DNA of 64,000 nucleotides from an uncultured Gammaproteobacteria bacterium (GCA_963786385.1 CAWAYS010000005.1:96527-160526); one strand, 5' to 3'. Shown: positions 2,684 to 30,353, counted from the stretch's first letter. The notes: a model not told the origin generated them from the sequence alone. A program made the numbers and translations.

Positions 2684-3985
2684 TCAGAAGAACTCCACGC
2701 CGCGCGTGCCCGTGCCGAAACGGTCGAGCTCGGCGCCGTATTGGTTGGCCACGGACAACCACAAGTTGCCGATCTCCGTGCGCTCGGGCAGCACGATGTG
2801 GCGGCTGCGCACGCGGCCGCCGAGCGCGACCATCGGCAGCGGGTCCGTGGCGTGCACGTTCGCGTCGCCGTGGCCGCTGCCGTAGAAGACGAGCGAGCTG
2901 TCGAGCAGCGAGCCGTCGCCGTCCGGCGTCGATTTCAGTCGATCGATGAAGCGCGAGAACATACTCACGCAGTACGCGGCGACTTTCTCGGCGCGCGCGA
3001 TCTTCTCGGGCACCTCGCCGTGGTGCGAGACCACGTGCCACGGGTCGTCGACGCTGATCTCGGGGAAGGTGCGCTGGCTCGATTCGCGCGAGAGCATGAA
3101 CGTGAACACGCGCGTGAGGTCGGCTTCGAACGCGAGCGCGAGCAAGTCGAACATGAGGTCCGCGTGCTCTTTGAACGTGGCCGGCACGCCGAGCGGCTTG
3201 TCGGGCAGCGCGATGTCGGCGGCGTTGGTTTGCTCGGTCTTCTGAATCCGGCGCTCGATCTCGCGCACGGTGTCGAGATAGTCCGATACGCGCGTGCGGT
3301 CGTGCGCGGGCAAGTGGCGCTCGAGCGCGCGCGCTTCGCCCGTGATCGCATCGAGAATGCTTTGGTCTTCGCGCAGCTGCTTGGCCTGGGCGGCCGGCGA
3401 GCCCGCGTCGCCGAACAGGCGCTCGAAGGCTTTGCGCGGGTTGATCTCCATCGGCAGCGCCGTCGTCGGCGACGCCCACGAGATCGTGTTCATATAGATG
3501 CAGGCGAAGCCCGGCGTGCAGCCGCCGACGTAGCCCGTGAAGTCCTCGGTCGCAAGCTCGAGCGACGGCAGCGGCGAGTCTTGGCCGATGCATTTGGCGA
3601 GCACTTGGTCGATGGTGGTGCCGACCTCGTAGTCCTCGCCTTCGGTCTCTTTCGGGATCGCGCCGCTGAGCCAGCCGCAGGCCGCCGCGGCGTGCATCTC
3701 TTTGACGGTGCCGGCGCGTTTGAGATTGGTGACGACGACGGCGGAATCCCGATGCGGCGCGAGCGAGAGCAGCGTGTGCGGCATCTCGAAGCTCGTGCCC
3801 GCGGCTTTGGGCGTCCAGGACGGCATGTCCGCGCCGTGCGGCATGTAGACGAAGCCGAAGCGCTTCGGTCTATCGACGTTCGCGGCCATGGCCGGGACCA
3901 TGGCGTCGAGGAAGGGCAGGGCCACGGTCACGCCGAGGCCGCGCAGGAAAGTCCGTCGCGGGAGCGCTTTCTTCGTGATGAACAT
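2684..3985 (-). CDS. DUF1552-family protein (partner of DUF1592/PSCyt-type proteins)
   Basis: 433 aa with a Tat-like N-terminus MFITKKALPRRTFLRGLGVTVALPFLDAM. Size and sequence pattern match my recollection of DUF1552. The start overlaps the upstream gene's stop (TAATG at 3983-3987), indicating translational coupling. Confidence 0.8.
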   Translation of the reverse strand: MFITKKALPRRTFLRGLGVTVALPFLDAMVPAMAANVDRPKRFGFVYMPHGADMPSWTPKAAGTSFEMPHTLLSLAPHRDSAVVVTNLKRAGTVKEMHAAAACGWLSGAIPKETEGEDYEVGTTIDQVLAKCIGQDSPLPSLELATEDFTGYVGGCTPGFACIYMNTISWASPTTALPMEINPRKAFERLFGDAGSPAAQAKQLREDQSILDAITGEARALERHLPAHDRTRVSDYLDTVREIERRIQKTEQTNAADIALPDKPLGVPATFKEHADLMFDLLALAFEADLTRVFTFMLSRESSQRTFPEISVDDPWHVVSHHGEVPEKIARAEKVAAYCVSMFSRFIDRLKSTPDGDGSLLDSSLVFYGSGHGDANVHATDPLPMVALGGRVRSRHIVLPERTEIGNLWLSVANQYGAELDRFGTGTRGVEFF

Positions 3986-13505: not shown

Positions 13506-13552
13506 TAGAGACGAGCGGCGGCCGAGCTGTTGCGCAAACGAGGAGTCCGGTC

Positions 13553-16500: not shown

Positions 16501-17014
16501 CACGCTGGCCGTTTCCGCGCCGGGCGAGGACAGCAATGCGAGTGGGGTCGGCGGGGAGCAAAGCGACAACTCGCTCGACTTTTCCGGGGCTGTGTATGTC
16601 TTCAGGCGCGACGGGGCCGGCGTGTGGTCGCAGCAAGCCTACATCAAGGCTTCGAACCCGGGGATGCGCGACGCCTTCGGCGACTCGCTCGCGCTCTCCG
16701 GCGACACGCTCGTGGTCGGCGCGCCGTTCGAGGACAGCGCCGAGACGGGTATCGGCGGCATCGGGGAGCACGACGACACGCCGGATTCGGGCGCCGTCTA
16801 CGTCTTCGTGCGCAGCGGCGGGCAGTGGGCCCAAGCAGCCTACGTCAAAGCGTCGAACACCGGCACGCCGGACAACTTCGGCACTTCCGTGGCCCTCGAC
16901 CTGGAGACGCTCGCGGTTGGGGCGTTCCAGGAAGCCGGTGCCGGGAAGGGTGTCGGCAGCGACGAAACCGATGACAGCGCTGCGGGCGCCGGTGCCGCGT
17001 ACGTGTTCCGGTGA
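13553..17014 (+). CDS. lipoprotein: two consecutive [Cadherin-like + 7-blade FG-GAP-like propeller] modules
   Basis: Track ORF 13427..17014. Start placed at ATG 13553 (AGGAG 7 nt upstream). Lipobox LTAC (Cys codon 22) plus a Gly-rich linker. Modules begin LSTLSIEGATLEQSFDPNTTSYTTV... and LASLSVDGVALDQIFQPTQLDYTAEV..., each followed by 7 blades. One blade in the last propeller is shortened. Confidence 0.85.
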   Translation: MGVTNRFMRLTTLLCFAVLTACGGGGGGGSGNGNGGGGRQSSDALLSTLSIEGATLEQSFDPNTTSYTTVVGFLNRAVEIAAAPEDAAATISVNGAPLTSTATTLDLDEGDNDVVVEVRAEDGTTRDYTVTVTRQRAAAFAEDAYVKASNPDVNDQFGYTVALDGNTLAVAASGEDGSARVIDGDQTDNALPESGAVYVFARNAAGQWSQQAYVKASNSGAGDAFGRALGLSGDTLAVGAPGEDSAAMGIDGDSMDDTATDAGAVYIYVRDAAGAWSQQAYMKASNAELGDGFGGAVALSGDTLAVGAIEEASAATGVDGDWTDNSAEESGAVYVFVRDAGQWSQQAYVKASNTEANDRFGAAVALDGDTLAVGAIGEDSSATGVGGDESDNNASFAGAVYVYVRDTAGRWSQQAYIKPSNGGSELTFGFALAIDRDTLAVGAPGDDSNAKGVDGVADPAAMTLGDSGAVYVFARDAGQWSQQAFIKASSPAVEDVFGLSVALRGDTLAVGAPGEDSAAIGIGGDEDDYAAPDSGAVYVFAREAGAWSQTFYVKASNTEANDQFGVSVGLSADTLAAGAYLEDGAATGVGGDASSDDALGAGAAYLVGGVPARTSTLASLSVDGVALDQIFQPTQLDYTAEVGFLARRIHLGIDMADSGETVHVNGVPVGASGIDLGLIPGDNVIEIRVTAEDGVTDRVYELTATRESAQAFAQQAYAKASNTDENDNFGRSVALSGDTLAVGAPNESGAVAGGGAQGDNTAESAGAVYVFTRDGAGVWSQQAYLKASNPDAMDFFGAAVALEGNTLVVGAYGEDSSATGVNGDETDNSADSAGAVYVFARDDTGQWSKQGYLKAADPGTFFGTAVAISGDTIVAGPGVYVFTRDDSGQWSAQGQVTNGGGGNDGFGFSVALDGNTVAVGAYRNASSATGVDGDPNMGGAPDSGAVYVYTRDDNGQWGRATVIKASNTDTSDTFGWAVALDGDTLAVSAPGEDSNASGVGGEQSDNSLDFSGAVYVFRRDGAGVWSQQAYIKASNPGMRDAFGDSLALSGDTLVVGAPFEDSAETGIGGIGEHDDTPDSGAVYVFVRSGGQWAQAAYVKASNTGTPDNFGTSVALDLETLAVGAFQEAGAGKGVGSDETDDSAAGAGAAYVFR

Positions 17015-17109: not shown

Positions 17110-18936
17110 ATGCATAAGTCTTCGTCAAGCTTGTCGCCCGTGCAGCGCTATCTCGACGAGCTCCATGCCGAGCTCGCATCGATGACCGAGGGTGCGGTGG
17201 CGAGCTACATCCCCGAGCTCACGCGTGCCGATCCGGCGTGGCTCGGCATCTCGATCGTCACCGTGGACGGTTATCGATACGAGGCCGGGGACACGCGGCA
17301 ACCGTTCACGATTCAATCCATCTCCAAAGCGCTCGTCTACGGACTCGCGTTGGAAGACCGTGGGCTCGACGCCGTGCTCGGCAAGGTCGGCGTCGAGCCC
17401 ACGGGCGAAGCGTTCAACTCGATCAGCCTCGAGCCGGAAACGGGCCGGCCGTTGAACCCGATGATCAACGCGGGGGCCATCGCCACCACCGGGTTGATCG
17501 AAGGCGCCGACGAAGCGGCGCGGATGCAGCGCATCCTGGCGGCTTTCGGGCGCTATACGGGCTCGGCCGTGGACATCGACGACAAGGTCTATGCGTCGGA
17601 GAGTGCGACGGGGCATCGCAACCGCGCGATCGCGCATCTGCTCTACGGGCACGGCGTGCTCGACCGCGCCCCCGACGAGGTGCTCGATCTGTACTTCCGG
17701 CAATGCTCGATTCTCGTGACCGCCACGGACCTCGCGCTCATGGCCGCATGCCTCGCCAACAGCGGCGTGAATCCCGTGACGGGTGTGACCGCGCTCGAGC
17801 GGCCGTACGTCGAAAAGGTGCTCAGCGTCATGAGCACTTGCGGCATGTACGACTATTCGGGCGAGTGGGTGTTCAACGTCGGCTTGCCGGCCAAGAGCGG
17901 TGTCGGCGGCGGCATCATGGCCGTGCTGCCCGGGCAATTCGGCCTCGGCGTGTTCTCGCCGCGGCTCGATCCGAAGGGCAACAGCGTTCGCGGCATCGAA
18001 GCGTGCAAACGCGTGTCGAAGGACTTCGACGTGCATTTGTTCAGCGTCGCGAGATCGACGTCGGCGACGGTCATCCGCGCCGTGTACGACGGCTCCGAGT
18101 TTCGCTCGCGCCGCCGCCGCGTGGCGGTCGAGGATCGACACCTCGAGGCGGTCGGTGCCCGGATTCGGATCTACGAGCTTCGCGGCCAGCTCATGTTCGG
18201 TGCGACGGAATCGGTCGCGCAGCAAATCCTGGCGTCGATGGGCGAGCTCGACTTCCTCGTCATCGACTTGCAGAGGGTCTTCCACGTCGACGGCGCGGCC
18301 GCCTCGATTCTCGCGACGCTGACGGCAACGTTGCTCGAGCGCGGCAAGAGGGTCGTGTTCGCAGGGGCCGGCAGCCACGATCGTTTGCTGAGCGGGCTCG
18401 AGGCGCTCGGCACCGAGGAGCCGGGTTGGTGCGCGTTCGACGACGTCGACCGCGCGGTCGAATGGTGCGAGGACCGTCTTCTCGGCGTCGAGCATGCGCC
18501 CGTGTCCGCTGCCGAGGAGCTCGACCTCGCGACTCACCATCTGTGTGCCGGGCTCACAGGCGAAGAGTTGTCGGTGTTGCGGGACGCGGCGCGGCGAGTT
18601 CGCTTCGCAGCCGGTGAGACCGTGTTCCGCGCGGCCGATTCCGCGACGTCGTTCTTTTTCGTGCTCGACGGCGAGGTCGAGGTGATCGTTGCGACCGGCG
18701 CGGACAGTCGGCTGCGAGTGACCACGATCGGTTCGGGGATGTGCTTCGGCGAGCTCGCCGTGCTCACGCAAGGCACCCGTTCGGCCGACGTCGTCGCTTC
18801 GCGCGCCACGCTGTGCCTGGAAATACCGTTCGAGTCGCTCGACGGCACGCTCGAGCGCAAGCTGCTTTCCAATCTCACCGCCTATCTCGCGCGCAAGGTC
18901 GTCAGCGACACCGAGTTGCTGCAGCGCATCGCCTAG
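17110..18936 (+). CDS. glsA: glutaminase A fused to STAS and cyclic-nucleotide-binding domains
   Basis: 608 aa, AGGAG upstream. Glutaminase core (VASYIPELTRADP...FTIQSISKALVYGLALEDRG...NPMINAGAI...GLPAKSGVGGGIMAVLPG). A STAS-like segment (RIRIYELRGQLMFGATESV...LDFLVIDLQRVFHVDGAAASILATL). A cNMP-binding segment (FAAGETVFRAADSATSFFFVLDGEVEV...GMCFGELAVLTQGTRSADVVA). Confidence 0.85.
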   Translation: MHKSSSSLSPVQRYLDELHAELASMTEGAVASYIPELTRADPAWLGISIVTVDGYRYEAGDTRQPFTIQSISKALVYGLALEDRGLDAVLGKVGVEPTGEAFNSISLEPETGRPLNPMINAGAIATTGLIEGADEAARMQRILAAFGRYTGSAVDIDDKVYASESATGHRNRAIAHLLYGHGVLDRAPDEVLDLYFRQCSILVTATDLALMAACLANSGVNPVTGVTALERPYVEKVLSVMSTCGMYDYSGEWVFNVGLPAKSGVGGGIMAVLPGQFGLGVFSPRLDPKGNSVRGIEACKRVSKDFDVHLFSVARSTSATVIRAVYDGSEFRSRRRRVAVEDRHLEAVGARIRIYELRGQLMFGATESVAQQILASMGELDFLVIDLQRVFHVDGAAASILATLTATLLERGKRVVFAGAGSHDRLLSGLEALGTEEPGWCAFDDVDRAVEWCEDRLLGVEHAPVSAAEELDLATHHLCAGLTGEELSVLRDAARRVRFAAGETVFRAADSATSFFFVLDGEVEVIVATGADSRLRVTTIGSGMCFGELAVLTQGTRSADVVASRATLCLEIPFESLDGTLERKLLSNLTAYLARKVVSDTELLQRIA

Positions 18937-18992: not shown

Positions 18993-19751
18993 CTACCGTG
19001 TGACGGCAGCGGTCGCGCCGAGCACGAGCCGCGCCTGCGCCGTGCACCCTCGCGCGGCGAGCCAAGCGGCCGTCGTCAGTCCCTTGTCGGTGAGCTCGGG
19101 CGCCAGCGTGTGCACGCGGATTGCGGTGGAGCGCAGCTCGCCGGCCGGGCGCACGAGGTAGACATGGTCGTCGAGCGGTTGCGCGGCCAGCGGCCACTTT
19201 GCGCTCGTCTCGTCGGTGCGCCAACGCACGGGCGCAGACTCGCGCGCCGCGACGTCGGTGACTTCGGCGCTCGCCGGCGGACCCGCCTGCTCGCGCCACA
19301 GCCGCACGGGAGTGTCGCGAACCACACATTGATCGCCGGTGATTTCCGTGTGCAACAGCCACGGGTCGGGCCGCGTGTCGGCGAGCAACTCGCGAGCCTC
19401 GGAGCCTCCGCGGACGCCGCCGAGGCCGCCGGCTTCGGCCGGTCCGGCGCCGAGCAGTTGCCGAATTGCGCGGCGCACGTTGCTTTCCTCGGAGTCGGAC
19501 GGCGCGTCGGGCGCGTCGGTGGCCACGCCGGTGTATGGCCCTGAGATTCTGAGGATTCTGCCGTCCTCCGTGGCGAGCAGCACGAACTCGCGCTCGTCGA
19601 GGGAGATCACGGTCGACAGGTCGAATGTCTGACCGGCCGTGTACCTCGCGTTGTTGGACTCGAGCACCACCTGCTCGGCCGCTCGCGCCGTGGCGATCGC
19701 CGAGAAGGCACCGATCAGGTAGACCGCGATGCGGACGCGAGCCTTCATCAT
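18993..19751 (-). CDS. secreted protein of unknown family, translationally coupled to the CHASE2 cyclase
   Basis: This is the last ~252 codons of track ORF 18993..20996; the rest of that ORF overlaps the cyclase out of frame. GGAGGAG precedes ATGATG (19751/19748), which overlaps the cyclase stop TGA 19750-19748. Signal peptide MKARVRIAVYLIGAFSAIATARA/AEQ, an acidic/Gly-rich linker, and two Cys. The N-terminal part is vaguely FecR-like. The gene sits where I recall a DUF928 protein in related clusters. Neither assignment is verified. Confidence 0.6.
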   Translation of the reverse strand: MMKARVRIAVYLIGAFSAIATARAAEQVVLESNNARYTAGQTFDLSTVISLDEREFVLLATEDGRILRISGPYTGVATDAPDAPSDSEESNVRRAIRQLLGAGPAEAGGLGGVRGGSEARELLADTRPDPWLLHTEITGDQCVVRDTPVRLWREQAGPPASAEVTDVAARESAPVRWRTDETSAKWPLAAQPLDDHVYLVRPAGELRSTAIRVHTLAPELTDKGLTTAAWLAARGCTAQARLVLGATAAVTR

Positions 19752-21676
19752 TTCTCCTCCAACACCACCCGGATGCCGGCGTCGCCGCGCTGCAGCCGGC
19801 CCAAGTGAAATGCAATCAATCCGTCGCCGGGCAATCGTGCGTGGAGCGATTCGAACAGCTGCACGCTGACCGGATCGCTCTGCGCGAGTGCCGCATAGGC
19901 TAGAAGATAGTCCTGCAGGTGCCCGTCCGCCAGCCCGTCGCACAACGTCACACACTCGATGCCCTGGCTTTTGCCTTTGAGCACGAGATGCGCGACCGGT
20001 CGAAGCGCGTGCTCCGGGCAGTGGCGGGCCGTGTCGATGCTGATGCAGACCCGTGTGCCGAGGTGCTTGTTGACGCTTTCGAGGCGCGCGGCCGTGTTCA
20101 CGCAGTCGCCGTGGGCCGTGTAATGGAAACGTGTCGTGCTGCCGACGTTGCCGACGACGGCGGTGCCCGAATGCACACCGATTCGGGTCGCCCCCATCGG
20201 CACACCGTTGGCGATGCGGTCCGCGCGAAAGGCCTCGCAGTAGCGATCGAGTGCCAACGCGCAGCGAACGGCGCGCTGCGCGTGGTCGGGCTGATCCGCC
20301 GGGGCGTTGAAGAACACCGCGATGCTGTCGCCGACCAGCCGGTCGACCGTGGCGCCGTGCGAGAGGGCGATCTGCAACATTCCCTCGAAGTAATCGTGAA
20401 GCAAGCCCACCACGGCTTCCGGTGTGGTTTGCTCCGCGAGTTTCGTGAAGTCGGCGAGATCGGAGAAGATGAAGCTCATCTCGCGCTTCTCGCCGCCGAG
20501 CACGAGCTTGTCCGGATTGTCGAGCACGTGATCGATCACGGCAGGCGAGACATAGCGCTGAAAGGCGGCCCGCACGAAGCGCTTCTCGGCGATGTCCACA
20601 TGCCGCGCGTAAGCGCCGCCGAAGCTCGCGCCGAGCGCGAGCCCGAGGCTCGGCGCCAAGAGCGGCAGCTGGACGCCGCCGGCCGCGAAATACGCGGTTG
20701 CGAGCGCCCAGAACGACAGCAGGCCGCCGACGCCGATGACGATCTTGGTCCACGGTTTCAGGTGCGTGAACGTGAGAGCGAATCCCGCGACGGCCACGGC
20801 GGCCAGCACGAGCGCTTGTAGCCACTCGGAGGTTTCCGGATAGCGCTCGCCGTCGAGCAATTGCGAGAAGGCCTGTGCGTGAATCATCGTGCCCGCCATC
20901 GTCGACTGCGCGCCGCCGAGCGCCGAGAGCGGCGTGCGAAAGCGGTCTTCGTTCGGCAGTTGGGCGCCGATGAGCACGACGCGGCCGCCGAGCCACGCCG
21001 TGGGAAGTTTCTCGGCGCTCGCGGCCGGGAACGCGCGCAGCGGCGGTTTGTCGGCGCTCGGCGCGCGGTAGTAGATGCGCTCGCGCGCGGCCGGCGGCGC
21101 AACGCCTACGGCAGTCGCGAGGGCGGCGGCGAAGCTCGGAATCCGACCGTTCTCGGCCGGCTCGCGCGGGTACAGAAACCGCACGACGCCGTCGACCGTG
21201 TGCAGCGTGGCGGATCCCACGCTCCGGCCGTCGAGATAGTGCGTTTGAAAGTCGAGCTGCCGGTCGGTCAGGCCGTTGTCTCGCGTGCCGACGGCGATCA
21301 CGACGGGGGCCGGAAAGTCGTCGAGCGCGTCGAGCAGCGCTTGGTCGTCGTCGGGCGTGGTCGGTTGATCGAAGATGACGTCGATGCCGACCGCGCGCGG
21401 TCTCTTCGGCGCAAGGCTCTGCAATATGTCAGCTAGGAACCGCCGGCTGATCGGCGAGCGGAACGGCAGCGTCGCGAGCGCGTCCTCGTCGATGCTCAGG
21501 ATCACGACGTCGTCGCTCGGCTCGCGCGCGGGACCGAAATACGCGAGCTGCAGATCCTCCAGCAGCGCGGAGCTGGCTCGCAGCACGGCGATATGACTCG
21601 TCCCCGCCCAGGTCAGCAGGACGGTCAGGCCGCAGAGGACGGCGCTCACGAATAGTCGACGATGAGGTTTTTTCAT
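19748..21676 (-). CDS. CHASE2 sensor domain / class III adenylate-guanylate cyclase
   Basis: 642 aa. N-terminal TM (LFVSAVLCGLTVLLTWAG). CHASE2-like periplasmic region (VVILSIDEDALATLPFRSPISRRFLADIL...AVGIDVIFDQP). A block of three TM helices. Cyclase core (MSFIFSDLADFTKL...RLVGDSIAVFFNAP...RIGVHSGTAVVGNVG...YTAHGDCVNTAARLES). Confidence 0.9.
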   Translation of the reverse strand: MKKPHRRLFVSAVLCGLTVLLTWAGTSHIAVLRASSALLEDLQLAYFGPAREPSDDVVILSIDEDALATLPFRSPISRRFLADILQSLAPKRPRAVGIDVIFDQPTTPDDDQALLDALDDFPAPVVIAVGTRDNGLTDRQLDFQTHYLDGRSVGSATLHTVDGVVRFLYPREPAENGRIPSFAAALATAVGVAPPAARERIYYRAPSADKPPLRAFPAASAEKLPTAWLGGRVVLIGAQLPNEDRFRTPLSALGGAQSTMAGTMIHAQAFSQLLDGERYPETSEWLQALVLAAVAVAGFALTFTHLKPWTKIVIGVGGLLSFWALATAYFAAGGVQLPLLAPSLGLALGASFGGAYARHVDIAEKRFVRAAFQRYVSPAVIDHVLDNPDKLVLGGEKREMSFIFSDLADFTKLAEQTTPEAVVGLLHDYFEGMLQIALSHGATVDRLVGDSIAVFFNAPADQPDHAQRAVRCALALDRYCEAFRADRIANGVPMGATRIGVHSGTAVVGNVGSTTRFHYTAHGDCVNTAARLESVNKHLGTRVCISIDTARHCPEHALRPVAHLVLKGKSQGIECVTLCDGLADGHLQDYLLAYAALAQSDPVSVQLFESLHARLPGDGLIAFHLGRLQRGDAGIRVVLEEK

Positions 21677-21719
21677 CTATGCGGGGACGACGACCGAAGA
21701 CTTTGCGATTTATGTCCGT

Positions 21720-23972
21720 ATGCTAGAGTCGGGCGCAAAGCTCGGGACAAGAACGAATGCGAAGCCCCGCCCGCGCCATGCTCACTCGCTACGTACGCCT
21801 CTTCGCCGGCCTCTTGCCGGCGCCATCGGCGTGTTCTCGTTCGTGGCCGCACCGTCGGCGTCGGCCGCCGACGCCGGTTGCGCCGAGATCGCCGGTTCCG
21901 TCGCTTCCGTGGAGCGCTCCATTCGGTCGGCCGATTGTTATGAGGCGTCCGGTCAGCCTCAGCGTGCTCTGGATTTGCTGCAAGCGGCGCTCCGGCAAAA
22001 CGTCGGTGACGGGCCAGAGGATCTGGCCAGGACTATAACCATCCACGGCCGTCTTGGCCAAGTGCACGCCGCGCTCGGCGAGTACCCGGCGGCAATTGCG
22101 GAGCTTTCGAAAGGCGTCGATGCGGCGGCCGGCTCGGGACGCACCGCCGATGCCGCGCCGCTGCTGAACGATCTCGGCCGGGCCTATATGTCGATCGACG
22201 AGCCGCTGCGCGGCCTCGCGGCGTTTGCCGACGGCGAGCGGCTCGCGGGCGAGAACACGCTGCTGCGGCTGACCGCGCAAACGAACCTCGCGCGGGCAAT
22301 GCGCGAGTCGGGTGCTGTCGAAGGTTTTGCCGACAGGCTCGCGACGATTCGAGCGGCGGTGTCGACACTCGATGCATCGCCGGCCAAGATCTCGATTCTT
22401 CTGTCGCTGGCGGAGTTGTACCGGGGCTACGCAACCGACGCGCCGAGCCCGCAGGACGTGCGTCGGCGTGCCAATGCGTTTGCCGCCGAGGCCGTCGAGC
22501 AAGCCCGCGGCTTCGGCGATCGAACTTTGCTCGCCGACGCCTACGGCGAGCTCGGGGCGTCGTATGCCGATCTCGGCGAGAGCGAGCGTGCGCTGACGGC
22601 GACGCGGCGAGCAGTTCTCGCGGCCGAGACCGTCGGCGCGGACGACAGTCTCTATCGTTGGGAGTGGCAATCCGGCAGGCTGCTGCGTCGGCTCGGCCGG
22701 GAGCGCGAGGCGTTGACCGCCTATCGGGTGGCTATCGACACGCTCGATCGAGCTCAGGCCGGGCTCGTGAGCTCGAGGCGACGATTCCGTCGCGACGTTT
22801 TGCCGCTCTACGAGCAGTACGCGGATCTGATGCTCACCGACGCGCGACAGCTGCCGCCCGAGCAGCTGCCGGCCGCGTTGCAGCAAGTTCAGCAGACCGT
22901 CGAGCGGCTGCGCGTCGCGGAGGTTCGCAACTACTTCGAGAACCAGTGCGCCGTGCCCGAGGTTTTCGATGCGTCGCGGCCTCGGCCCGACAACGTGGTC
23001 GTCATCTATCCACTGTTGTTCGCCGATCGCACGGAGCTGCTCGTGAGTGCGCGCGACAAGCTTTTTCAGTTCACCGTGCGCGTGCCGCTCGACCGGCTCA
23101 CGAGCGAGATTAGGCTGCTGCGCACGGCGATCGAGGATCCCGCGTCCGGTGATGCCTATCTGGCGGACGCACGACGGCTCTATGACTGGCTCATCGCGCC
23201 GCTCGAGCCGCTGCTGCGCGAAGCCGAGCCCGACACGATCGTATTCGTTCCCGACGGGCCGCTGCGCACGATACCGCTCGCCGTGCTCAACGACGGGCAA
23301 CGCTTCCTCGTCGAGCGCTACGCGCTGGCCACGACGCCCGGGCTCTCGTTGGTCGGCACCGTGAACGCCGAGCCCGTGACGCGCGCGCTCGTCAACGGGC
23401 TGGTCGAGCCCGCGCAAGGGTTCCCGGGGCTGCCGTTCGTGGCCGAAGAGCTCGAGCACGTGAAGGAAACGGTGCCGTCGCGCGTGTATCGAGACGACGG
23501 CTTCGTCACGGCTACGCTCGAGAAGGAGATTCTCGACGGCGGCTATTCGATCGTTCACTTCGCCACGCACGCCGAGTTCGAATCCGATTACCGGCGCTCG
23601 TTTCTGCTCACACACGACGACGTCATCACCATGGACGAGCTCGAGGACATCGTAGGCAGCCAGCGTTACACGGAGCACCCCGTGGATCTCTTGGTGCTCA
23701 GCGCGTGCCAGACTGCGGCCGGCGAAGACCGCGCGGCGCTCGGCTTGGCCGGCGTGGCCGTGAAGGCCGGCGCGCGCAGCGCGCTCGCATCGCTGTGGTT
23801 CGTCAACGACCAATCCACGGCTCTGCTCGTGTCGGAGTTCTATAAGGAGCTGGCCGGCGCGTCGACGAAAGCCGGCGCGCTGCGCGGCGCCCAACTGTTG
23901 CTGCTCAACGATGAGCGGTATCGGCACCCGGCGTACTGGGCGCCGTTTCTCATGATCGGCAATTGGCGGTAG
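21720..23972 (+). CDS. exported TPR-repeat CHAT-domain (caspase-fold) protein
   Basis: 750 aa. Signal-like N-terminus (RRPLAGAIGVFSFVAAPSASA/AD). About 350 aa of TPR-like helical repeats (LNDLGRAYMSIDEPLRGLAAF; LADAYGELGASYADLGESERALTATRRAV). C-terminal CHAT domain with His/Cys dyad contexts YSIVHFATHAEF and VDLLVLSACQTAAGE. Ends HPAYWAPFLMIGNWR. Confidence 0.9.
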   Translation: MLESGAKLGTRTNAKPRPRHAHSLRTPLRRPLAGAIGVFSFVAAPSASAADAGCAEIAGSVASVERSIRSADCYEASGQPQRALDLLQAALRQNVGDGPEDLARTITIHGRLGQVHAALGEYPAAIAELSKGVDAAAGSGRTADAAPLLNDLGRAYMSIDEPLRGLAAFADGERLAGENTLLRLTAQTNLARAMRESGAVEGFADRLATIRAAVSTLDASPAKISILLSLAELYRGYATDAPSPQDVRRRANAFAAEAVEQARGFGDRTLLADAYGELGASYADLGESERALTATRRAVLAAETVGADDSLYRWEWQSGRLLRRLGREREALTAYRVAIDTLDRAQAGLVSSRRRFRRDVLPLYEQYADLMLTDARQLPPEQLPAALQQVQQTVERLRVAEVRNYFENQCAVPEVFDASRPRPDNVVVIYPLLFADRTELLVSARDKLFQFTVRVPLDRLTSEIRLLRTAIEDPASGDAYLADARRLYDWLIAPLEPLLREAEPDTIVFVPDGPLRTIPLAVLNDGQRFLVERYALATTPGLSLVGTVNAEPVTRALVNGLVEPAQGFPGLPFVAEELEHVKETVPSRVYRDDGFVTATLEKEILDGGYSIVHFATHAEFESDYRRSFLLTHDDVITMDELEDIVGSQRYTEHPVDLLVLSACQTAAGEDRAALGLAGVAVKAGARSALASLWFVNDQSTALLVSEFYKELAGASTKAGALRGAQLLLLNDERYRHPAYWAPFLMIGNWR

Positions 23973-25660
23973 CTCGGCGCATGGATACGTTGCGCGCACT
24001 CCGTTTCGCCACGGCTTCGGCATTATCTTCGCTCGCACTGCTGTCGGCGACGCCGCTGCTCGCGCAACCGTCTTCGGCGGCGCCGGACGCGGCCGGGGCC
24101 GGGATCGAGGCCGCGACCGTGCGCGCTGCCTTGCCGGAGGCCGAGGCGGAGTCTCTGGCGACGGTCGGTGCCGTGCACGTGTCGGCCATTCGTGTGCAAG
24201 GCTCCACGGTGTTCACGCCCGATGAGCTCGCGGCGCTCGCGGCGCCCTACTCGAATCGAACGGTGACCATCGAGGAGCTGCACGAGCTGCGCCATGCGCT
24301 GTCGAGTGCCTACGTCGACCGCGGCTACGTGACCTCCGGCGTGATCCTGCCCGACCAGCAAGTAGTCGACGGCGTCATCGTGCTGCAAGCCGTCGAGGGC
24401 CGGCTCGCGGACATCGAGATCGTCGGCAACCGGCGCATGCGCGAGCGCGCGATCGCGCGCCGCGTCACGCGCTACGTGCAAGCGCCCGTCGACATCGACG
24501 ACCTCGAGGTCGGCTTGCTGTCGCTGCAGCGCGAGCCACCCGTCGAGCGCGTGAACGCGCAGCTGCTGCCCGGCGCGACGATAGGCGAAAGCCATCTGCG
24601 GCTCGCCGTGACCGAGCGGCCGGCGTTGACGTTCGAGGTCACGGCCGCGAACGACCGCTCGCCGAGCGTCGGCGAGAACCGCGGCACGGTGGCGCTGACC
24701 TACGGCGGCTTGGTCGGCAACGGCGACGCGCTGACCGGCCGTTTCGGCTTGACGCGCGGCGTACAGGACGATGCGATCTCGTACCGCGTGCCGCTCGGGC
24801 CGCGCGACACGCAGCTCGACGTTTCGCTGTCCGATCAGCAAGCCGACATCGTGGAAGAGCCGTTCGACGCCATCGATATCAAGAGCCGCTTGAAAGCTTG
24901 GAGTTTGACCGCCACGCATCCGTTCGTCGCGGAGCCCGACCGCTCGTTCAGCGGCATCCTGGGCTTCGAGCACAAGCGCAGCGAGAGCACGCTGCTCGGC
25001 ATGCCGTTCTCGTTCTCGCCCGGCGACGTGGGCGGCAAGGCGCGCGGCAGCGCCGTGTCCGTCGGCGCGGAGGTCACTCGGCGCCGCGATTCGACGGCTT
25101 GGGCCGCTCGCGCCGTCGTGCAACTCGGTGTCGACGCGCTCGATGCCACGATCAACGCCGCCGGACCCGACAGCGAGTTCGCGACGCTGCTCGTGCAGGC
25201 GCAATTCGCGCGCGCCATCGCATGGCGCCGTAGCCGGCTGCTCGTGCGCGGCGTGGTGCAACGCGCGGGTGAGCCGCTGCTCGCGATGTACAAGATGCCG
25301 CTCGGCGGACGCTACAGCGTGCGCGGCTATCGCGAGAATCAATTCGTTCGCGACAACGGCGTTGCGGCGTCGATCGAGTATCAGTTCCCGCTCATCGTCG
25401 ACGAAACGGGCCGCGCTCGCGATGAGCTCAAGCTCGCCGTGTTCTCCGACTACGGGGTGTCGTGGGACGAGGACGCGTCGCTGCCGACGTCGCGCAAAGC
25501 GCGAATCGCGAGTGCGGGATTGGGTCTGCTCTGGGCGCCGACGCCGGGTTTCCACGCGGACGTCTACTGGGGTGCGGCGTTCGACGAGCAACCCCATCCA
25601 ACGACCACGGCGCAGGACCGTGGGTTTCACTATCAGCTCGGATTCAACAGATCGTTTTGA
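23963..25660 (+). CDS. ShlB/FhaC/HecB-family two-partner-secretion transporter (TpsB)
   Basis: 565 aa from TTG 23963 (overlaps the CHAT stop by 10 nt) or 559 aa from ATG 23981. Signal peptide (ALSSLALLSATPLLAQP). POTRA region (IRVQGSTVFTPDELAALAAPYSNRTVTIEELHELRHALSSAYVDRGYVTSGVILPDQQ). Beta-barrel region ending in the aromatic terminus ...HYQLGFNRSF. Confidence 0.9.
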   Translation: MAVARRMDTLRALRFATASALSSLALLSATPLLAQPSSAAPDAAGAGIEAATVRAALPEAEAESLATVGAVHVSAIRVQGSTVFTPDELAALAAPYSNRTVTIEELHELRHALSSAYVDRGYVTSGVILPDQQVVDGVIVLQAVEGRLADIEIVGNRRMRERAIARRVTRYVQAPVDIDDLEVGLLSLQREPPVERVNAQLLPGATIGESHLRLAVTERPALTFEVTAANDRSPSVGENRGTVALTYGGLVGNGDALTGRFGLTRGVQDDAISYRVPLGPRDTQLDVSLSDQQADIVEEPFDAIDIKSRLKAWSLTATHPFVAEPDRSFSGILGFEHKRSESTLLGMPFSFSPGDVGGKARGSAVSVGAEVTRRRDSTAWAARAVVQLGVDALDATINAAGPDSEFATLLVQAQFARAIAWRRSRLLVRGVVQRAGEPLLAMYKMPLGGRYSVRGYRENQFVRDNGVAASIEYQFPLIVDETGRARDELKLAVFSDYGVSWDEDASLPTSRKARIASAGLGLLWAPTPGFHADVYWGAAFDEQPHPTTTAQDRGFHYQLGFNRSF

Positions 25661-25682
25661 CGGATACGGGAGAGGGAGTACG

Positions 25683-28658
25683 GTGAGTTCGACGTTCGAG
25701 CAGACGCGGCCTGAGCAGGAAGAGGTGGGAACGCCGGCGCTTGCCGGCCGCCGCTGCGTCTTCGCGCTCACGTGGGTTATGGCCGCTGCGCTATCGGCGC
25801 CGTTGCGGGCGCAGGTCGTGCTCGACGGGACGATGGGTCCCGCGGGCGCGCTGTCGGGCCCGAACTTTACGGTCGACGACACGCTCGGCACGCAGGTCGG
25901 CGCGAACCTGTTTCACAGCTTCAGCGATTTCAACGTCCGGACCGGTGAGAGCGTGACGTTCACGAGTGCTTACGCCGGGACGACGAGCAACGTGATCGGC
26001 CGTGTCACGGGCGCAGGCGCGTCGAGCATCGACGGCCTGCTCGCGAGCGACATTGCCGGTGCGGATCTGTGGCTCATCAACCCGAACGGCATCGCGTTCG
26101 GCGCGAATGCAACGCTCGACGTGCAAGCCGGCTTCCATGCGACCACGGCCGATGCGTTGGTGCTCGCCGACGGCGGGCGTTTCGATGCGACGAACGTCGG
26201 CGATACCGTGCTCACGATCGCGAACCCGGCGGCTTTCGGTTTTCTCGACGGGGTTAGCGGCGCGATTTCGGTCCAGGGGGCCACGTTGCAGGTTCCGGCC
26301 GGACACGCGTTGACCTTGACCGGCGGCGCGATCGATCTCGCCGCGGCGACGCTCGGCGCGCCGGCGGGGTCGATCGATCTGCAAAGCGTTGCCGGCGCCG
26401 GCGAGGTTCGATTTCGCGGCGGCACGCCGCCCGGCGCGGTCGCCACCGAGTTCGCACCGCTCACGCTCGATGCGAGTCGCGTCACGACCGCGGGCGGCGG
26501 TGGCGGTGGCGGTGGCGGCGGTGGCGGTGGCGGTGGTGGCGGAGGCGGCAGCGCGGGCGGCAACGGTGCCGCGCTCGGCGACATCTATATCCGCGGCGGT
26601 GCGTTCGTCATGTCGTCTGCATCGGTCGTCTCGGCCACCGCGGCCGGTAGCGGCCCTGCGCCGAGCGGCAATGTGACGATCGATGCCGTGAGCGCGCGAA
26701 TTCGCGGCGGCAGCCAAGTCCGGACCGGCACGCTCGGAGCGGGCGCCGGCGGCGTCATCTCGCTCACGGCCGCAGACTCGGTCGTCATCGACGGCACGGC
26801 CGGCACCAGCACCGGCGGCGGTGGCGGTGGCGGTGGCGGAGGAGGCGGAGGCGGTGGCGGCGGCGGCAGCAGCTCGAGCAACGCTTCGGGGCTTTTCTCC
26901 GACGTCGGCACCGACGCGACGGGCGCCGGTGGCGGGATCAGCATCGCGGCCGGCACGATCAGGATCAGCAACCAGGCGACTGTCGCGGCCACGACGGCCG
27001 GCAGCGGAGCGGCCGGCGACATCGACTTGCAGGCGACCGAGCGGCTCACCCTCTTGCAGGACGCGCAAATCAACGCGAGCACGGCCGCGAGTGGCCGCGG
27101 CGGCGACATCCGCCTCGCGGCGCCGACCGTCGAGCTGTTGAACGGTGTGCGCATCGGCAGCGTCGCGCAGGCAGACGGGGCGGGCGGTGACATCGCGATC
27201 GAGGCCCCCGACGCTTTGGTCGTGACGGGCACGAACGGCGACCCGGATCCCGCTACGAACCGAGGCTCGAGAATCACGGCGAGCAGCTTCTTCACGGCGA
27301 CGGGAGATGCGGGATCGATCGCGATCGACGCGGGGCGCGTCGAGCTCGACGACGGCGCGCGAATCTCCACGAGCACGTCCGGCATTGGCGACGGCGGCGA
27401 CATCCTGATCGATGCGACGGGGCCGATCACACTGACCGGTGCGCGCGGCGACGGCAGCGGCTCGGCGATCAAGGCTTCGACCGAAGTCGAAGCGTCGCAG
27501 GCCAGTGCCGTCGACGGACCGCGCGTGGGCGTTGCAGGCGACATCTCGATTCGCGCCCCGAGCCTCTCGCTGACGGACACCGCGGAGATCGTCAGCAACA
27601 CGAGCCTCGAGGGTGACGGCGGCCAAGTCACGATCGACGTCGACGCCTTGCAGCTCGCGGATGCGCGGATCGCGAGCGAATCGACGACGGAAGGTGCGGC
27701 GGCCGGCAACGCAGGCGCCGTGACCGTGAACGCGGGCTCGATCGCCCTCGAGAGCGGCGGCAGGATCTCGGCGGCGACTGTCGATGGCGCGGGCGGTACC
27801 GTGACCCTCACGGCCGACGAGATTCGGATCGCGGGCGGTGCGCTGTCCGCGGCGTCGACGGGTGCGGGCCAGGGCGGCGATCTGATTCTCTCGGCACGGT
27901 CCGTCGCGCTGCTTGACGGCGGCAGCATCTCGGCCAGCGCCACGGGTCTCGGTAGCGCCGGCGCGCTCGTCGTGACGGCCGAGGACAGTCTCACCATGAG
28001 CTCGAGCGCGATCCGCACCAACGCGGCGCGTTCGGCCGGCGGCGACATAGCGCTCACGGTCGGGCGGCAAGTGATTCTCGTCGACTCGCTCGTGAGCGCC
28101 GAGGCCCAAGGTGTCACCGCGCAAGCCGACGGCGGCAACATTGTCATCGACCCCGATTTCGTGATCCTCGACAACAGCGGTGTGATCGCGCGCGCGAACG
28201 CGGGCAACGGCGGTAACATCACCATTCGTGCCGGATTCTTCGTCGGCTCGTCGGACAGCCAGATCGACGCGTCGTCGAGCCTCGGCGTCGACGGCGACGT
28301 GTCGATCGAATCCCCGAATCAAATCAACGACACCGTGATTCCACTCGAAGTGTCGGCGGCGGAGCCGAACGAGCTGCTGACCCAGCGCTGCGTCCCGCAG
28401 CTCGCGGAGCAGCGCAGCAGCTTGACCGTGAGCGCGCGTGCGCGCGCGACGTCGGCGCCCGGGGATTTTCTTGCCAGCCCGAGATCGACGGCCTCGGGGG
28501 TGGGACCGTCGGCCGGCGCCGATACCGCCGCACCGGCGGCAGCCTTGGCTGCTGTGATGCGGGACCCGCTCAGCGGGGCTACCTATACCTGCGCCGGTGC
28601 CGCGCTCCGCTTTCCGGCAAGGGCCGAGCGCGTTGCGGGGGGTGCGTCCCGCCGCTAA
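25683..28658 (+). CDS. TPS-domain (filamentous-hemagglutinin N-terminal domain) beta-helix exoprotein (TpsA-like)
   Basis: Track ORF 25128..28658 overlaps TpsB for more than 500 nt, so the start is placed at in-frame GTG 25683 (GGGAG 4 nt upstream, 22 nt after the TpsB stop). Extended signal peptide (GRRCVFALTWVMAAALSAPLRAQ). TPS domain (VVLDGTMGPAG...GANLFHSFSDFNVRTGESVTFTS...NVIGRVTGAGASSIDGLL...LWLINPNGIAFG). Degenerate beta-helix repeats. Cys-containing tail (LLTQRCVPQLAEQRSSLTVSAR). Confidence 0.85.
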   Translation: MSSTFEQTRPEQEEVGTPALAGRRCVFALTWVMAAALSAPLRAQVVLDGTMGPAGALSGPNFTVDDTLGTQVGANLFHSFSDFNVRTGESVTFTSAYAGTTSNVIGRVTGAGASSIDGLLASDIAGADLWLINPNGIAFGANATLDVQAGFHATTADALVLADGGRFDATNVGDTVLTIANPAAFGFLDGVSGAISVQGATLQVPAGHALTLTGGAIDLAAATLGAPAGSIDLQSVAGAGEVRFRGGTPPGAVATEFAPLTLDASRVTTAGGGGGGGGGGGGGGGGGGGSAGGNGAALGDIYIRGGAFVMSSASVVSATAAGSGPAPSGNVTIDAVSARIRGGSQVRTGTLGAGAGGVISLTAADSVVIDGTAGTSTGGGGGGGGGGGGGGGGGGSSSSNASGLFSDVGTDATGAGGGISIAAGTIRISNQATVAATTAGSGAAGDIDLQATERLTLLQDAQINASTAASGRGGDIRLAAPTVELLNGVRIGSVAQADGAGGDIAIEAPDALVVTGTNGDPDPATNRGSRITASSFFTATGDAGSIAIDAGRVELDDGARISTSTSGIGDGGDILIDATGPITLTGARGDGSGSAIKASTEVEASQASAVDGPRVGVAGDISIRAPSLSLTDTAEIVSNTSLEGDGGQVTIDVDALQLADARIASESTTEGAAAGNAGAVTVNAGSIALESGGRISAATVDGAGGTVTLTADEIRIAGGALSAASTGAGQGGDLILSARSVALLDGGSISASATGLGSAGALVVTAEDSLTMSSSAIRTNAARSAGGDIALTVGRQVILVDSLVSAEAQGVTAQADGGNIVIDPDFVILDNSGVIARANAGNGGNITIRAGFFVGSSDSQIDASSSLGVDGDVSIESPNQINDTVIPLEVSAAEPNELLTQRCVPQLAEQRSSLTVSARARATSAPGDFLASPRSTASGVGPSAGADTAAPAAALAAVMRDPLSGATYTCAGAALRFPARAERVAGGASRR
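26493..26549 (+). repeat. in-frame (GGN)19 tract encoding poly-Gly linker 1 of the TpsA-like protein
   Basis: Direct reading gives 19 consecutive Gly codons (ggc/ggt/gga) in the 25683 frame. Confidence 0.9.
26814..26867 (+). repeat. in-frame (GGN)18 tract encoding poly-Gly linker 2 of the TpsA-like protein
   Basis: Direct reading gives 18 consecutive Gly codons followed by SSSS. The tract lies 264 nt downstream of tract 1. Confidence 0.9.
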
Positions 28659-28682
28659 CATTCGTCGACAGCCGTCCGCCCG

Positions 28683-30353
28683 ATGCTTTCGAAACCCACC
28701 CCGGGGCGGGCCCACGAGACACGGATGGACGATAAGCTACGCCGCGGCTTTCGCATCGGCGATTTCGACGTCGAGCCGCTATCGGGACGTCTGCGGGGGC
28801 CCGGCGGCGAGCAGCGCGTCCAGCCCAAGGTCATGGACGTGCTTGTCTATCTCGCGGCGCATCCGGAGCAGCTCGTCGAGCGCGACAGGTTGCTCACCGA
28901 CGTCTGGCGGCGCGTCACGTCCGAGGAAGTCCTGACGCGGTGCATCAGCGATCTGCGTCGGGTGTTCGGCGACGAGCGCGGCAGCCCGAAGTACATCCAG
29001 ACGGTGCCGAAGCGCGGCTATCGGCTCGTCGCGCCCGTCGTCGTGCCCGAAGAGGGTCATCGTCCCGAGCCTGCCGAGTCCACCGAGCCGGCGGACGGAC
29101 AGCGCGCGGCGCGCCCGATCGTGCTGCCGAGCCGCGGCAGTGCGATCGCGTCGATCGCGGTGCTGCCGTTCGAGAGTCATTCGAGCGATCCGGCCCGCTC
29201 GTTCATGGGCGACGCGTTTGCGGCCGAGCTGCACGGTGCCCTCGCGCGAGTAGATCGGTTGCGCGTTGCTTCGCGCCGGTCTTCGTTCGCGTTCAAGGAC
29301 ACGGCGGTGGATCTCAGAGAGATCGGGCGGCGCTTGGACGTCGACTACGTGATCACGGGAAGCGTGCGCTGCGACGGCTCGAGCCTGCGCGTGCTCGCGG
29401 AGCTCAACGACGCTCCGAGCGGCACGCAGCTGTGGGCGGAGAGCTACGACAGCAAGAGCGAAGATTTGCTCACGGTCGAGCAAGACATTGCCCAATCGAT
29501 CGTGGGATCGTTCACGACGCAGCGACTTCGCTCCGAGACCGATCACGCGCGGCACGTGCCGACGAGCAGCCTCGACGCTTGGGGGCTCGTCCAGAAGGCC
29601 CGCGCCTTCGCGCTGGATTACACGCCGGCGGGATTCGAGCAGGCCATCGAGCCGCTCCGGCGCGCGATCGAGTTGGACCCCGACTACCCCGCGGCGCACG
29701 CCATGCTCGGGTCGCTGCTCGTGGAGCGCCTCGTGAACGGTTCCAGCGTGAACGTGCAGCAGGACGAGGCCGCCGCGCTCGAGAGTGCGGAACGGGCGCT
29801 CACGCTCGGGCTCGAAGACCCCTTCGTCCTCAAGATGGTGGCCTGGGTCTGGACCTATTTCGGCGATTACCGCAAGGCCGAGAGCTGCTTGCGCAGCGCC
29901 GTCGCGTACGCGCCGTTCGACTACGGGGCGTGGGGATACCTGGGCTGGCCATTGACCGCCTCGGGCGACGCGGCCGACTTGGAGGAGCTGCGCCGCATCC
30001 TGGATAGGTTGCTCGGCGCCGAGCCGCGGCATCCGGGTGCGGCGTTCTGGCACTACCACCTCTCGGTCGTCGATCTCTGCGAAGCCCGATACGAAACGTC
30101 GCGCGTCTCCGCGGAGGCCTGTCTGGAGCTGCGGCCGAGTCTTGCGCTCGGTTGGATGCACTACGCGGCCGTCCTGGGGCAATCGAACCTCGACGCGCTC
30201 GCGGACCAAGCGCTCGAGCGTTGCCGTCAAGTCAATCCGGCCATGACGCCGGCGCACTTCGAATCGCTCGCGAAGCGCATGACGGACAACGCTGCCGTGG
30301 TCGCGCGCCGGCTCGGCGGCTTACGTCGGATCGGCGCGCTGCAAGGCGAGTGA
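28683..30353 (+). CDS. winged-helix (OmpR/CadC-type) DNA-binding domain + TolB-like + TPR regulator
   Basis: 556 aa; an alternative start is ATG 28725. wHTH (FRIGDFDVEPLSGRLRGPGGEQRVQPKVMDVLVYLAAHPEQLVERDRLLTDVW...YIQTVPKRGYRLVAPV). TolB-N-like segment (IAVLPFESHSSDP...DVDYVITGSVRCDGSSLRVLAELND). C-terminal TPR-like repeats. Starts 24 nt after the TpsA-like stop. Confidence 0.85.
   Translation: MLSKPTPGRAHETRMDDKLRRGFRIGDFDVEPLSGRLRGPGGEQRVQPKVMDVLVYLAAHPEQLVERDRLLTDVWRRVTSEEVLTRCISDLRRVFGDERGSPKYIQTVPKRGYRLVAPVVVPEEGHRPEPAESTEPADGQRAARPIVLPSRGSAIASIAVLPFESHSSDPARSFMGDAFAAELHGALARVDRLRVASRRSSFAFKDTAVDLREIGRRLDVDYVITGSVRCDGSSLRVLAELNDAPSGTQLWAESYDSKSEDLLTVEQDIAQSIVGSFTTQRLRSETDHARHVPTSSLDAWGLVQKARAFALDYTPAGFEQAIEPLRRAIELDPDYPAAHAMLGSLLVERLVNGSSVNVQQDEAAALESAERALTLGLEDPFVLKMVAWVWTYFGDYRKAESCLRSAVAYAPFDYGAWGYLGWPLTASGDAADLEELRRILDRLLGAEPRHPGAAFWHYHLSVVDLCEARYETSRVSAEACLELRPSLALGWMHYAAVLGQSNLDALADQALERCRQVNPAMTPAHFESLAKRMTDNAAVVARRLGGLRRIGALQGE

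Follow-up and report, generated by a model that had tools for sequence, protein, structure and literature searches.

A widespread bacterial gene module combining an exported TPR-CHAT protease, a two-partner secretion pair and a CHASE2 cyclase

We analyzed a stretch of 64,000 nucleotides (the window, ~67% G+C) from an uncultured Gammaproteobacteria bacterium (GCA_963786385.1, CAWAYS010000005.1:96527-160526), and in particular its positions 18993-30353. Here a gene for a CHASE2 receptor with a class III cyclase domain lies divergently from genes for an exported TPR-CHAT protease and for the two proteins of a two-partner secretion (TPS) system, the transporter TpsB and the exoprotein TpsA. These genes belong to a module that is widespread among bacteria and not to a single odd locus. 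Its core is composed of TpsB, a short beta-helical TpsA with a Cys-bearing tail, the exported TPR-CHAT protein, a small exported beta-sandwich protein and, in ~70% of the loci, a CHASE2 receptor, whose cytoplasmic output is usually a class III cyclase. A first-pass annotation of the window had proposed a functional link between an exported caspase-like protease and a TPS pair, with coupling to the synthesis of cyclic mononucleotides (cNMPs). The conservation of the neighborhood across phyla and the recurrence of cNMP-binding effectors support this functional linkage, for which we offer a mechanism as a hypothesis. The gene cluster probably serves to relay information from the surface to the interior of the cell.

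Conservation of the module across phyla

A profile derived from the CHAT alignment was searched against one genome per species (GTDB) and returned at least 490 loci with a relative, of which the best 80 were retrieved. Families of neighboring genes were defined by iterated hidden Markov model searches over six-frame open reading frames (ORFs), with the window proteins and one DUF928 protein as seeds. All neighborhood counts refer to 40 loci at species level, each built around the gene for a relative of the CHAT protein and flanked on either side by 8 kb of sequence or more; the presence of CHASE2 and cNMP-binding ORFs was counted within 10 kb of that gene. TpsA occurs in 37 of these 40 loci, TpsB in 33 and CHASE2 in 28 (24 with a cyclase), which bears out the association of CHAT with TPS, TpsB and CHASE2 genes described in the first-pass annotation. 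A small exported protein is encoded in 30 loci, either a DUF928 protein (27 loci) or a member of the family of the 252-aa protein of the window (p252, three loci). The presence of DUF928 in such neighborhoods of cyanobacteria and proteobacteria, also named in the first-pass annotation, proved correct in the same survey.

The carriers among the retrieved loci are Gamma-, Alpha- and Betaproteobacteria, Desulfobacterota, Nitrospirota (including the complete genome of Ca. Nitrospira defluvii), Verrucomicrobiota, Acidobacteriota, Abditibacteriota and Cyanobacteria. Three loci (L004, with 61% identity, L091 and L094) share the divergent five-gene layout of the window. At two others with ~38% identity (L003 and L005), the CHAT gene is accompanied by a CHASE2-cyclase gene and two DUF928 genes, and L005 also has TPS and ShlB genes. 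At L002, the gene for a large protein, identified as TpsA by jackhmmer, is followed by genes for CHAT, DUF928, ShlB and a Crp-type regulator. A Niveispirillum plasmid bears a single operon in the order TpsB-TpsA-CHAT-p252-cyclase, and pNPUN02 of Nostoc punctiforme PCC 73102 carries TpsA-ShlB-CHAT (NPUN_RS36135-36145). Azospirillum himalayense, Niveispirillum cyanobacteriorum TH16 and Desulfobacter latus are further carriers that can be cultured.

Since gene order and orientation differ between phyla, a single recent transfer is excluded, and protein identities of 33-45% likewise exclude one recently transferred island. The adjacency of the module genes is not due to chance. At least two partner families are found in every locus (40/40), across at least six phyla and in several gene orders, which makes it extremely improbable that independent genes have come to lie together fortuitously; all that speaks for such an origin is that individual components are missing from some loci, with nothing specific otherwise.

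The winged helix-turn-helix (wHTH) regulator encoded after tpsA had also been taken as a member of the module, and here the survey corrects the first-pass annotation. In a first set of 87 other loci, the regulator was absent from all of them. L091 has a 61%-identical ortholog near its module, and L094 has a Trans_reg_C protein in a similar position. The wHTH regulator is thus a clade-specific accessory of some close gammaproteobacterial relatives and lies outside the core. This clade restriction had not been noticed before, nor had the cNMP-binding neighbors of the module, including a gene for a glutaminase-STAS-cNMP protein, and the conserved Cys-bearing tail of TpsA.

The first-pass annotation named no experimentally assigned function for such neighborhoods, and the searchable full-text literature holds no functional study of them. 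Nothing in it links CHAT with CHASE2, TPS components or DUF928, although most subscription journals are outside its scope and an earlier mention in comparative genomics is possible. DUF928 appears there in an unrelated context only.

Genes of the window and their predicted products

The six gene models of the first-pass annotation, together with the overlap and the spacings given below, were reproduced at the same coordinates by ORF listing and translation, and Pfam searches confirmed the CHASE2/cyclase, TPR-CHAT, TpsB, TPS and wHTH assignments. The features are as follows.

17110-18936, plus strand: glutaminase-STAS-cNMP protein, 608 aa (Pfam Glutaminase 5e-119, STAS 1e-7, cNMP_binding 1e-17), outside positions 18993-30353
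18993-19751, minus strand: 252-aa exported protein (p252 family), no Pfam or NCBIfam match
19748-21676, minus strand: CHASE2 and class III cyclase protein, 642 aa (Pfam CHASE2 8e-29, Guanylate_cyc 1e-21)
21677-21719: 43-bp gap separating the divergent cyclase and CHAT-TpsB-TpsA operons, sequence read directly
21720-23972, plus strand: exported TPR-CHAT cysteine protease, 750 aa (Pfam CHAT 1e-58 and TPR)
23556-23570, plus strand: candidate catalytic His613/His617 of the CHAT protease
23706-23708, plus strand: candidate catalytic Cys663 of the CHAT protease
23963-25660, plus strand: TpsB transporter, 565 aa (Pfam POTRA_2 3e-24, ShlB 8e-20; VRGY)
25683-28658, plus strand: TpsA exoprotein, 991 aa, GTG start (Pfam TPS 8e-37; TIGR01901 9e-20)
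28266-28655, plus strand: C-terminal tail of TpsA, with Cys codons at 28389-28391 and 28590-28592
28683-30353, plus strand: OmpR/CadC-type wHTH and TPR regulator, 556 aa (Pfam Trans_reg_C 1e-15 and TPR; NCBIfam CadC-like N-terminus)

The TGA of the cyclase gene and the ATG of the 252-aa gene share an ATGA overlap, 22 nt separate the end of tpsB from the start of tpsA, and the wHTH gene begins 24 nt past the TpsA gene. The glutaminase gene and the 252-aa gene converge, and 56 bp separate their stop codons. The topology of the window proteins was read from simple hydropathy, which gives signal-peptide-like N-termini for the 252-aa protein, CHAT, TpsB and TpsA and hydrophobic segments flanking CHASE2; in line with the first-pass annotation, an extracytoplasmic part is predicted for each of the five structural proteins. 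The 43-bp gap holds nothing convincing in the way of phase-variable repeats or promoters, and no Rfam families or tRNAs were found in the window. Just upstream of the glutaminase gene, positions 13427-17014 (plus strand) encode a 1195-aa protein with 14 FG-GAP repeats and cadherin-like domains, which is likely another surface or secreted protein.

The Pfam match of the CHAT protein spans positions 3-289 of the 289-position model. The dyad contexts quoted in the first-pass annotation are present, as the motifs IVHFATHAEF and LSACQTAAGE, and His613, His617 and Cys663 are invariant in 14 diverse CHAT homologs (32-63% identity). Clear signal peptides occur in 39 of the 57 near-full-length homologs; most of the others start inside a hydrophobic stretch, which points to miscalled starts. 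For the window gene, a public gene caller places the start at GTG 21831, and no in-frame start lies between this codon and ATG 21720. Because the GTG start would cut off most of the signal peptide, ATG 21720 and the 43-bp gap stand. In gammaproteobacterial CHAT proteins, twin arginines precede the hydrophobic core of the signal peptide (RRPLAG, RRSFVG, RRLVIA), both in the window (21720-21870) and in homologs P0003, P0012, P0013, P0015 and P0026; the signal peptides of distant homologs look Sec-type. The twin arginines hint at export of the folded protease through the twin-arginine translocation (Tat) pathway. A profile search of PDB sequences for solved CHAT relatives returned TPR proteins only among the best 60 of 118 matches. 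An apparent TpsB-TPR-CHAT fusion at L025, a locus of a metagenome-assembled genome, was considered as a Rosetta-stone candidate and rejected: two N bases (3223-3224) mask the TpsB stop codon and produce a false 1366-aa ORF, in which the CHAT signal peptide follows.

The cyclase protein is laid out as a first transmembrane segment, CHASE2 (residues 31-297), a domain that faces the periplasm, a transmembrane bundle and a cytoplasmic cyclase, with hydrophobic segments at residues 8-26, 288-306 and 312-330 (one before CHASE2 and at least two after it). Metal-binding D406 and D450 and transition-state N527 and R531 are kept. In an alignment of 40 sequences (39 cyclases and the seed), both Asp residues are present in all 40, the Asn in 38 and the Arg in 39. 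With their catalytic residues intact, the CHAT and cyclase enzymes of the module look active. At the base-specifying position the window cyclase has Arg446, in an Arg/Thr pair, as opposed to the canonical Lys/Asp-Thr (ATP) or Glu/Cys-Gly (GTP).

In cyanobacterial CHASE2 proteins, an AAA_35 or a cytoplasmic CHAT domain replaces the cyclase; such variants lie at L069 15496-17811 and L073 12965-15388, both on the minus strand. At L069, the same periplasmic sensor would have as its output a second caspase-like domain, located in the cytoplasm. Since the cytoplasmic output varies (cyclase, AAA_35 or CHAT), CHASE2 looks like a constant receiver, and the cyanobacterial variants fit a role of CHASE2 in receiving a common periplasmic input.

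A cNMP-binding ORF is present in 11 of the 40 loci. The proteins encoded are Crp-type regulators, a SulP-STAS-cNMP transporter, cNMP-binding Ser/Thr kinases and glutaminase-STAS-cNMP enzymes, and the last architecture is found directly upstream of CHAT in three Verrucomicrobiota species (L011, L019 and L027). Readers of a locally made nucleotide would be expected to share the cNMP-binding domain and to differ in the effectors fused to it, as these neighbors do, and we regard them as putative readers. The glutaminase-STAS-cNMP protein of the window is the probable local reader of the cyclase product. To our knowledge, no cNMP-regulated glutaminase has been characterised.

By their sequence features, the TpsB and TpsA proteins of the window form a genuine TPS (type Vb) system, and TpsB-dependent export of TpsA is predicted. 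TpsB starts at TTG 23963, which overlaps the CHAT stop codon, or at ATG 23981; it has the type Vb features, namely ShlB-type POTRA domains, an Omp85-type barrel and the L6 motif VRGY at residue 453, and tpsA adjoins its gene. The N-terminus of TpsA bears the type Vb features of a TPS domain, NPNGI and NLFHSF, the last already quoted in the first-pass annotation. Gly-rich beta-helix repeats, two poly-Gly runs and the conserved C-terminal tail complete the protein. The poly-Gly runs, which interrupt the beta-helix repeats (26493-26549 and 26813-26867, ~19 Gly codons each, mixed GGC/GGT), may be flexible hinges. Being no pure homopolymers, they offer no obvious basis for phase variation by strand slippage.

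The tail motif is carried by 48 of the 58 complete TpsA homologs from CHAT-anchored loci, across phyla. Its consensus is ...ASS.lG.dGtV.IqsP..dlSG.l.pLP...LdA.aLLr.rCaAR..G..SSFvV.GRgGLP..Pgg.LpSp, with a looser form ...ASS.lG.dG.V.I..P...LL..rC......SS(F/L).V...P..(F/L)L.SP. A second Cys lies near the C-terminus (within ~10 residues) in about half of the homologs, and the rest have a single Cys. The window TpsA has its Cys residues at 89 and 22 residues from the end, an SS(L)TV segment and a FLASP ending. TpsB is the exit route of TpsA proteins, whose last-exiting part can stay in the periplasm. Because the tail is conserved, its cleavage by the CHAT protease is plausible.

Gly-Arg-Gly elements are conserved in unstructured segments of all three exported partners, namely DUF928, p252 and most TpsA tails. 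They take the form G(R/K)(G/D)G in most TpsA tails, GGVRG in p252 (residues 109-113, ~19413-19427 on the minus strand) and PP.(R/K)GAP..R..GG(S/T)RG in DUF928 ORFs (L003-L085), those of L071 and L078 having GVTRG repeats in tandem. Extended peptides are ligands of TPR domains, and several caspase-fold proteases cut after Arg or Lys. The elements could be protease sites or TPR docking peptides; a specificity of the CHAT protease for Arg at P1 is only suggested by their presence in the partner proteins.

CHAT or the small exported protein might also be cargo of TpsB, secreted together with a TpsA scaffold to act as an extracellular protease or toxin. The close coupling of the genes with tpsB and the two CHAT genes that follow tpsA in some cyanobacterial loci speak for this reading. 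However, CHAT and p252 have no TPS domain, the recognition element of TpsB, and the sole apparent TpsB-CHAT fusion is the artifact at L025. We consider a cargo role very improbable.

The 252-aa protein, described at first as belonging to no recognisable family, has indeed no match in Pfam (E ≤ 10), NCBIfam (0.01) or PADLOC (1e-3). Its own family comprises 1590 cluster representatives at E ≤ 1e-3, and the sampled members have no Pfam match over the region in common with the 252-aa protein. In an AlphaFold2 model (mean pLDDT 83.6), a small beta domain at the N-terminus precedes a disordered linker and a 7-stranded beta-sandwich, with two helices at the C-terminus; within the family, G-V-R-G in the linker and two Cys residues are invariant. 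A fold search against PDB returned generic Ig-like beta-sandwiches only, none at E ≤ 1e-3. Some of the distant family members (P0247, P0293, P0305) have a C-terminal DUF4384 domain, which often accompanies bacterial caspase-like proteins.

The p252 gene adjoins the CHASE2-cyclase gene in every locus examined, and DUF928 occupies its slot in other loci. Either gene is close-coupled to the cyclase gene, with frequent stop/start overlap. The DUF928 model (pLDDT 67, moderate confidence) has a disordered N-terminus with the conserved ...GG(S/T)RG, then a sandwich and then helices, a layout that resembles p252; its best structural match is the C-terminal domain of MtxA, itself of unknown function. 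Comparison of the 252-aa protein with FecR and DUF928 profiles, as the first-pass annotation had suggested, revealed homology to neither. A divergent DUF928 (PF06051) was rejected, with no Pfam match at E ≤ 10 and an hhalign probability <1% in two separate alignments, and so was a FecR-like protein, with no Pfam match and an hhalign probability of 0.07% against the FecR neighbor of a Sinorhizobium meliloti CHASE2 cyclase. Going by position and by the models, we keep p252 as a putative positional analog of DUF928. In S. meliloti Ak57, in a record labelled pSymB (L089 11307-12194), the gene for a FecR-domain protein adjoins a CHASE2 cyclase gene, and FecR-type proteins may fill the slot of the small periplasmic partner in rhizobia.

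Proposed mechanism and alternatives

We propose that the cluster is a widespread module for outside-in envelope signaling and adhesin control, and we give the whole mechanism somewhat better than an even chance. TpsB would export TpsA, which would stay surface-bound while its tail sits inside the TpsB pore or beneath it. The protease, in the periplasm, would dock via its TPR domain, and CHAT would cut the TpsA tail, the small protein or both at exposed Gly-Arg-Gly segments. CHASE2 would sense the resulting state, through a cleavage product or the small protein, and would switch the cyclase. The cNMP would be read by the co-encoded cNMP-binding proteins, here the glutaminase-STAS-cNMP protein and elsewhere Crp-type regulators, SulP-STAS-cNMP transporters or Ser/Thr kinases, with information flowing from outside to inside. 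The cleavage pairs, the CHASE2 ligand and the nucleotide in this scheme are those that we infer. The mechanism is plausible because it has two studied precedents, which are also the closest analogs of the module: CdrA/LapG/LapD and the Sinorhizobium CHASE2 cyclases with NsrA and Clr.

A more specific version is tentative, and we rate it as possible but clearly short of even. In this version TpsA would be a surface-tethered sensor of contact, shear or a ligand, and its tail would control the protease. The protease would make the CHASE2 ligand from DUF928/p252 or from the tail and would thereby drive the synthesis of cNMPs, or the ATPase or caspase outputs of cyanobacteria.

Several observations weigh against the proposed signaling mechanism. 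CHASE2 is absent within 10 kb in ~30% of the loci, for example in many Nitrospira, from which it follows that the TPS-CHAT-DUF928 core does not depend on a linked cyclase. The loci were chosen by CHAT similarity, and their counts are valid for this CHAT subfamily and not for all CHAT or all TPS genes. The base-specifying position varies among the module cyclases (K in 13, D in 12, R in 7, Q in 3 and other residues in 5), and points to no single nucleotide product; differing or non-canonical cNMP products across lineages are a possibility. The Gly-Arg-Gly (GRGG) element of the tail is not kept in the window TpsA or in its own clade, and the Niveispirillum TpsA has no Cys tail at all. Finally, p252 and DUF928 share no detectable homology, and they are treated as equivalent because of the position of their genes and the broad resemblance of their predicted architectures.

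The main rival to the signaling mechanism limits the protease to adhesin maturation or release. CHAT would trim or free a tethered TpsA, much as LapG acts on CdrA or the processing proteases on FhaB, and the CHASE2 cyclase would be an independent upstream regulator acting via cNMP, which does not sense proteolysis. TpsA, TpsB and CHAT are indeed the most constant trio (37 and 33 of the 40 loci, compared to 28 for CHASE2), and there are Nitrospira loci with TpsA-TpsB-CHAT-DUF928 and no CHASE2 nearby. The conservation of the Cys-bearing tail, the precedent of CdrA/LapG and the Crp-type regulators beside several loci would fit as well. This reading accounts less well for the translational coupling of the small exported protein to the CHASE2 gene. 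Moreover, CHASE2 keeps its place while its output changes, which suggests that it receives something from the periplasmic partners, and the effectors include enzymes and transporters besides regulators. We therefore regard control of adhesin release alone as rather unlikely.

Relation to known systems and implications

In Pseudomonas aeruginosa, the periplasmic Cys protease LapG frees the TpsA adhesin CdrA and is governed by the cyclic di-GMP (c-di-GMP) receptor LapD (PMC4694147). The module is similar to CdrAB/LapG/LapD in having a TpsA that would be exported by TpsB and held at the surface, a periplasmic Cys protease that would act at its C-terminal end and an inner-membrane second-messenger protein that would be coupled to the proteolysis. 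The protease, however, is predicted to be a TPR-CHAT protein with a caspase fold, whereas LapG is transglutaminase-like, and the CHASE2 sensor would make cNMP in an outside-in direction, whereas LapD is a c-di-GMP receptor that sequesters the protease (inside-out). The small exported DUF928/p252 protein is an addition of the module, and all its genes are clustered. No LapG-type protease, LapD, GGDEF or EAL gene is present in the cluster, which is thus not a Lap system. The module resembles CdrAB/LapGD in logic, with other protein families, another messenger and probably the opposite direction of signaling.

The CHASE2 cyclases CyaK, CyaD1 and CyaD2 of S. meliloti need the outer-membrane protein NsrA, through which a plant or ribosomal protein signal is perceived, and their cAMP signals through Clr (PMC7529298, PMC13001267). 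Both systems combine inner-membrane CHASE2 class III cyclases with an outer-membrane beta-barrel protein; the signal in Sinorhizobium is an external one of protein type, and its cAMP is read by a Crp-family protein, just as Crp-type genes flank several of the loci related to the window. In contrast to the module, no CHAT protease, TpsA or DUF928 is reported for the Sinorhizobium pathway, where one CHASE2 cyclase has a FecR-domain neighbor. Neither the ten genera most frequent in a tblastn search with the window TpsB nor the 40 records listed included Sinorhizobium.

FhaB/FhaC of Bordetella is a TPS pair of the same kind, in which the C-terminal part of FhaB is periplasmic and removed by proteolysis. 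The FhaB prodomain is very large, there is no cyclase, and the processing proteases (SphB1, CtpA and DegP) are of other families and are not dedicated operon partners. Membership in contact-dependent inhibition systems (CdiA/CdiB) was rejected, since the TpsA C-terminus is conserved and has no toxin or pretoxin Pfam match and the next gene encodes a regulator.

Two immune systems share single parts with the module. Csx29, the TPR-CHAT protein of Craspase (type III-E CRISPR gRAMP), has the same order of TPR and then a CHAT caspase-fold domain with a His/Cys dyad, but it is cytoplasmic and switched on by RNA-guided target binding, whereas the protein of the window has a signal peptide. The similarity of the two sequences is below detection in the profile search of PDB sequences, whose best 60 of 118 matches were all TPR proteins. 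In Pycsar, as here, a class III cyclase gene lies beside genes for proteins with cNMP-binding domains. PycC is nevertheless cytoplasmic and triggered by phage, with TIR or membrane-disrupting effectors, as opposed to a periplasmic CHASE2 sensor with metabolic or regulatory effectors. Membership in Pycsar was rejected because the PADLOC matches are at domain level only, the cyclase has a CHASE2 sensor and its neighbor is a glutaminase.

These likenesses bear on a role in conflict or defense, in which TpsA or CHASE2 would detect phage, predators or competitors, and the protease and cNMP would trigger growth arrest or death, as caspase-like or Pycsar-type systems do. Several immune systems of prokaryotes are known to use CHAT and other caspase-fold proteases as effectors. 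At domain level, the cyclase matches Pycsar PycC (1e-21), the neighboring cNMP-binding domain matches that of Pycsar effectors, and the unusual base-specifying residues allow for non-canonical cNMPs. Cyanobacterial loci add AAA_35 or cytoplasmic CHAT outputs, with NB-ARC genes nearby. Still, we judge a defensive role improbable. The protease is exported, as its signal peptides indicate, and not cytoplasmic, and no PADLOC model matches CHAT, TpsA, TpsB or p252. The linked effectors are of housekeeping type (glutaminase, SulP, Crp), the C-terminus of TpsA is conserved rather than polymorphic, with no toxin-immunity pair, and no mobile-element or defense-island context was seen around the module in the window.

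CHASE2 domains are common sensors in bacteria and little is known of their ligands; the only studied pathway that we found is that of Sinorhizobium. The module supplies candidate partners for CHASE2, namely a TPS pair, an exported caspase-like protease and a small exported protein. If the proposed mechanism is true, it would give a first assigned role to periplasmic CHAT proteases and to DUF928, and it would extend the principle of a protease-controlled TPS adhesin coupled to a second messenger from c-di-GMP and LapG to cNMP and CHAT. The carriers include environmentally important bacteria, such as Nitrospira, Verrucomicrobiota and Competibacter, as well as the genetically tractable Nostoc punctiforme and Azospirillum.

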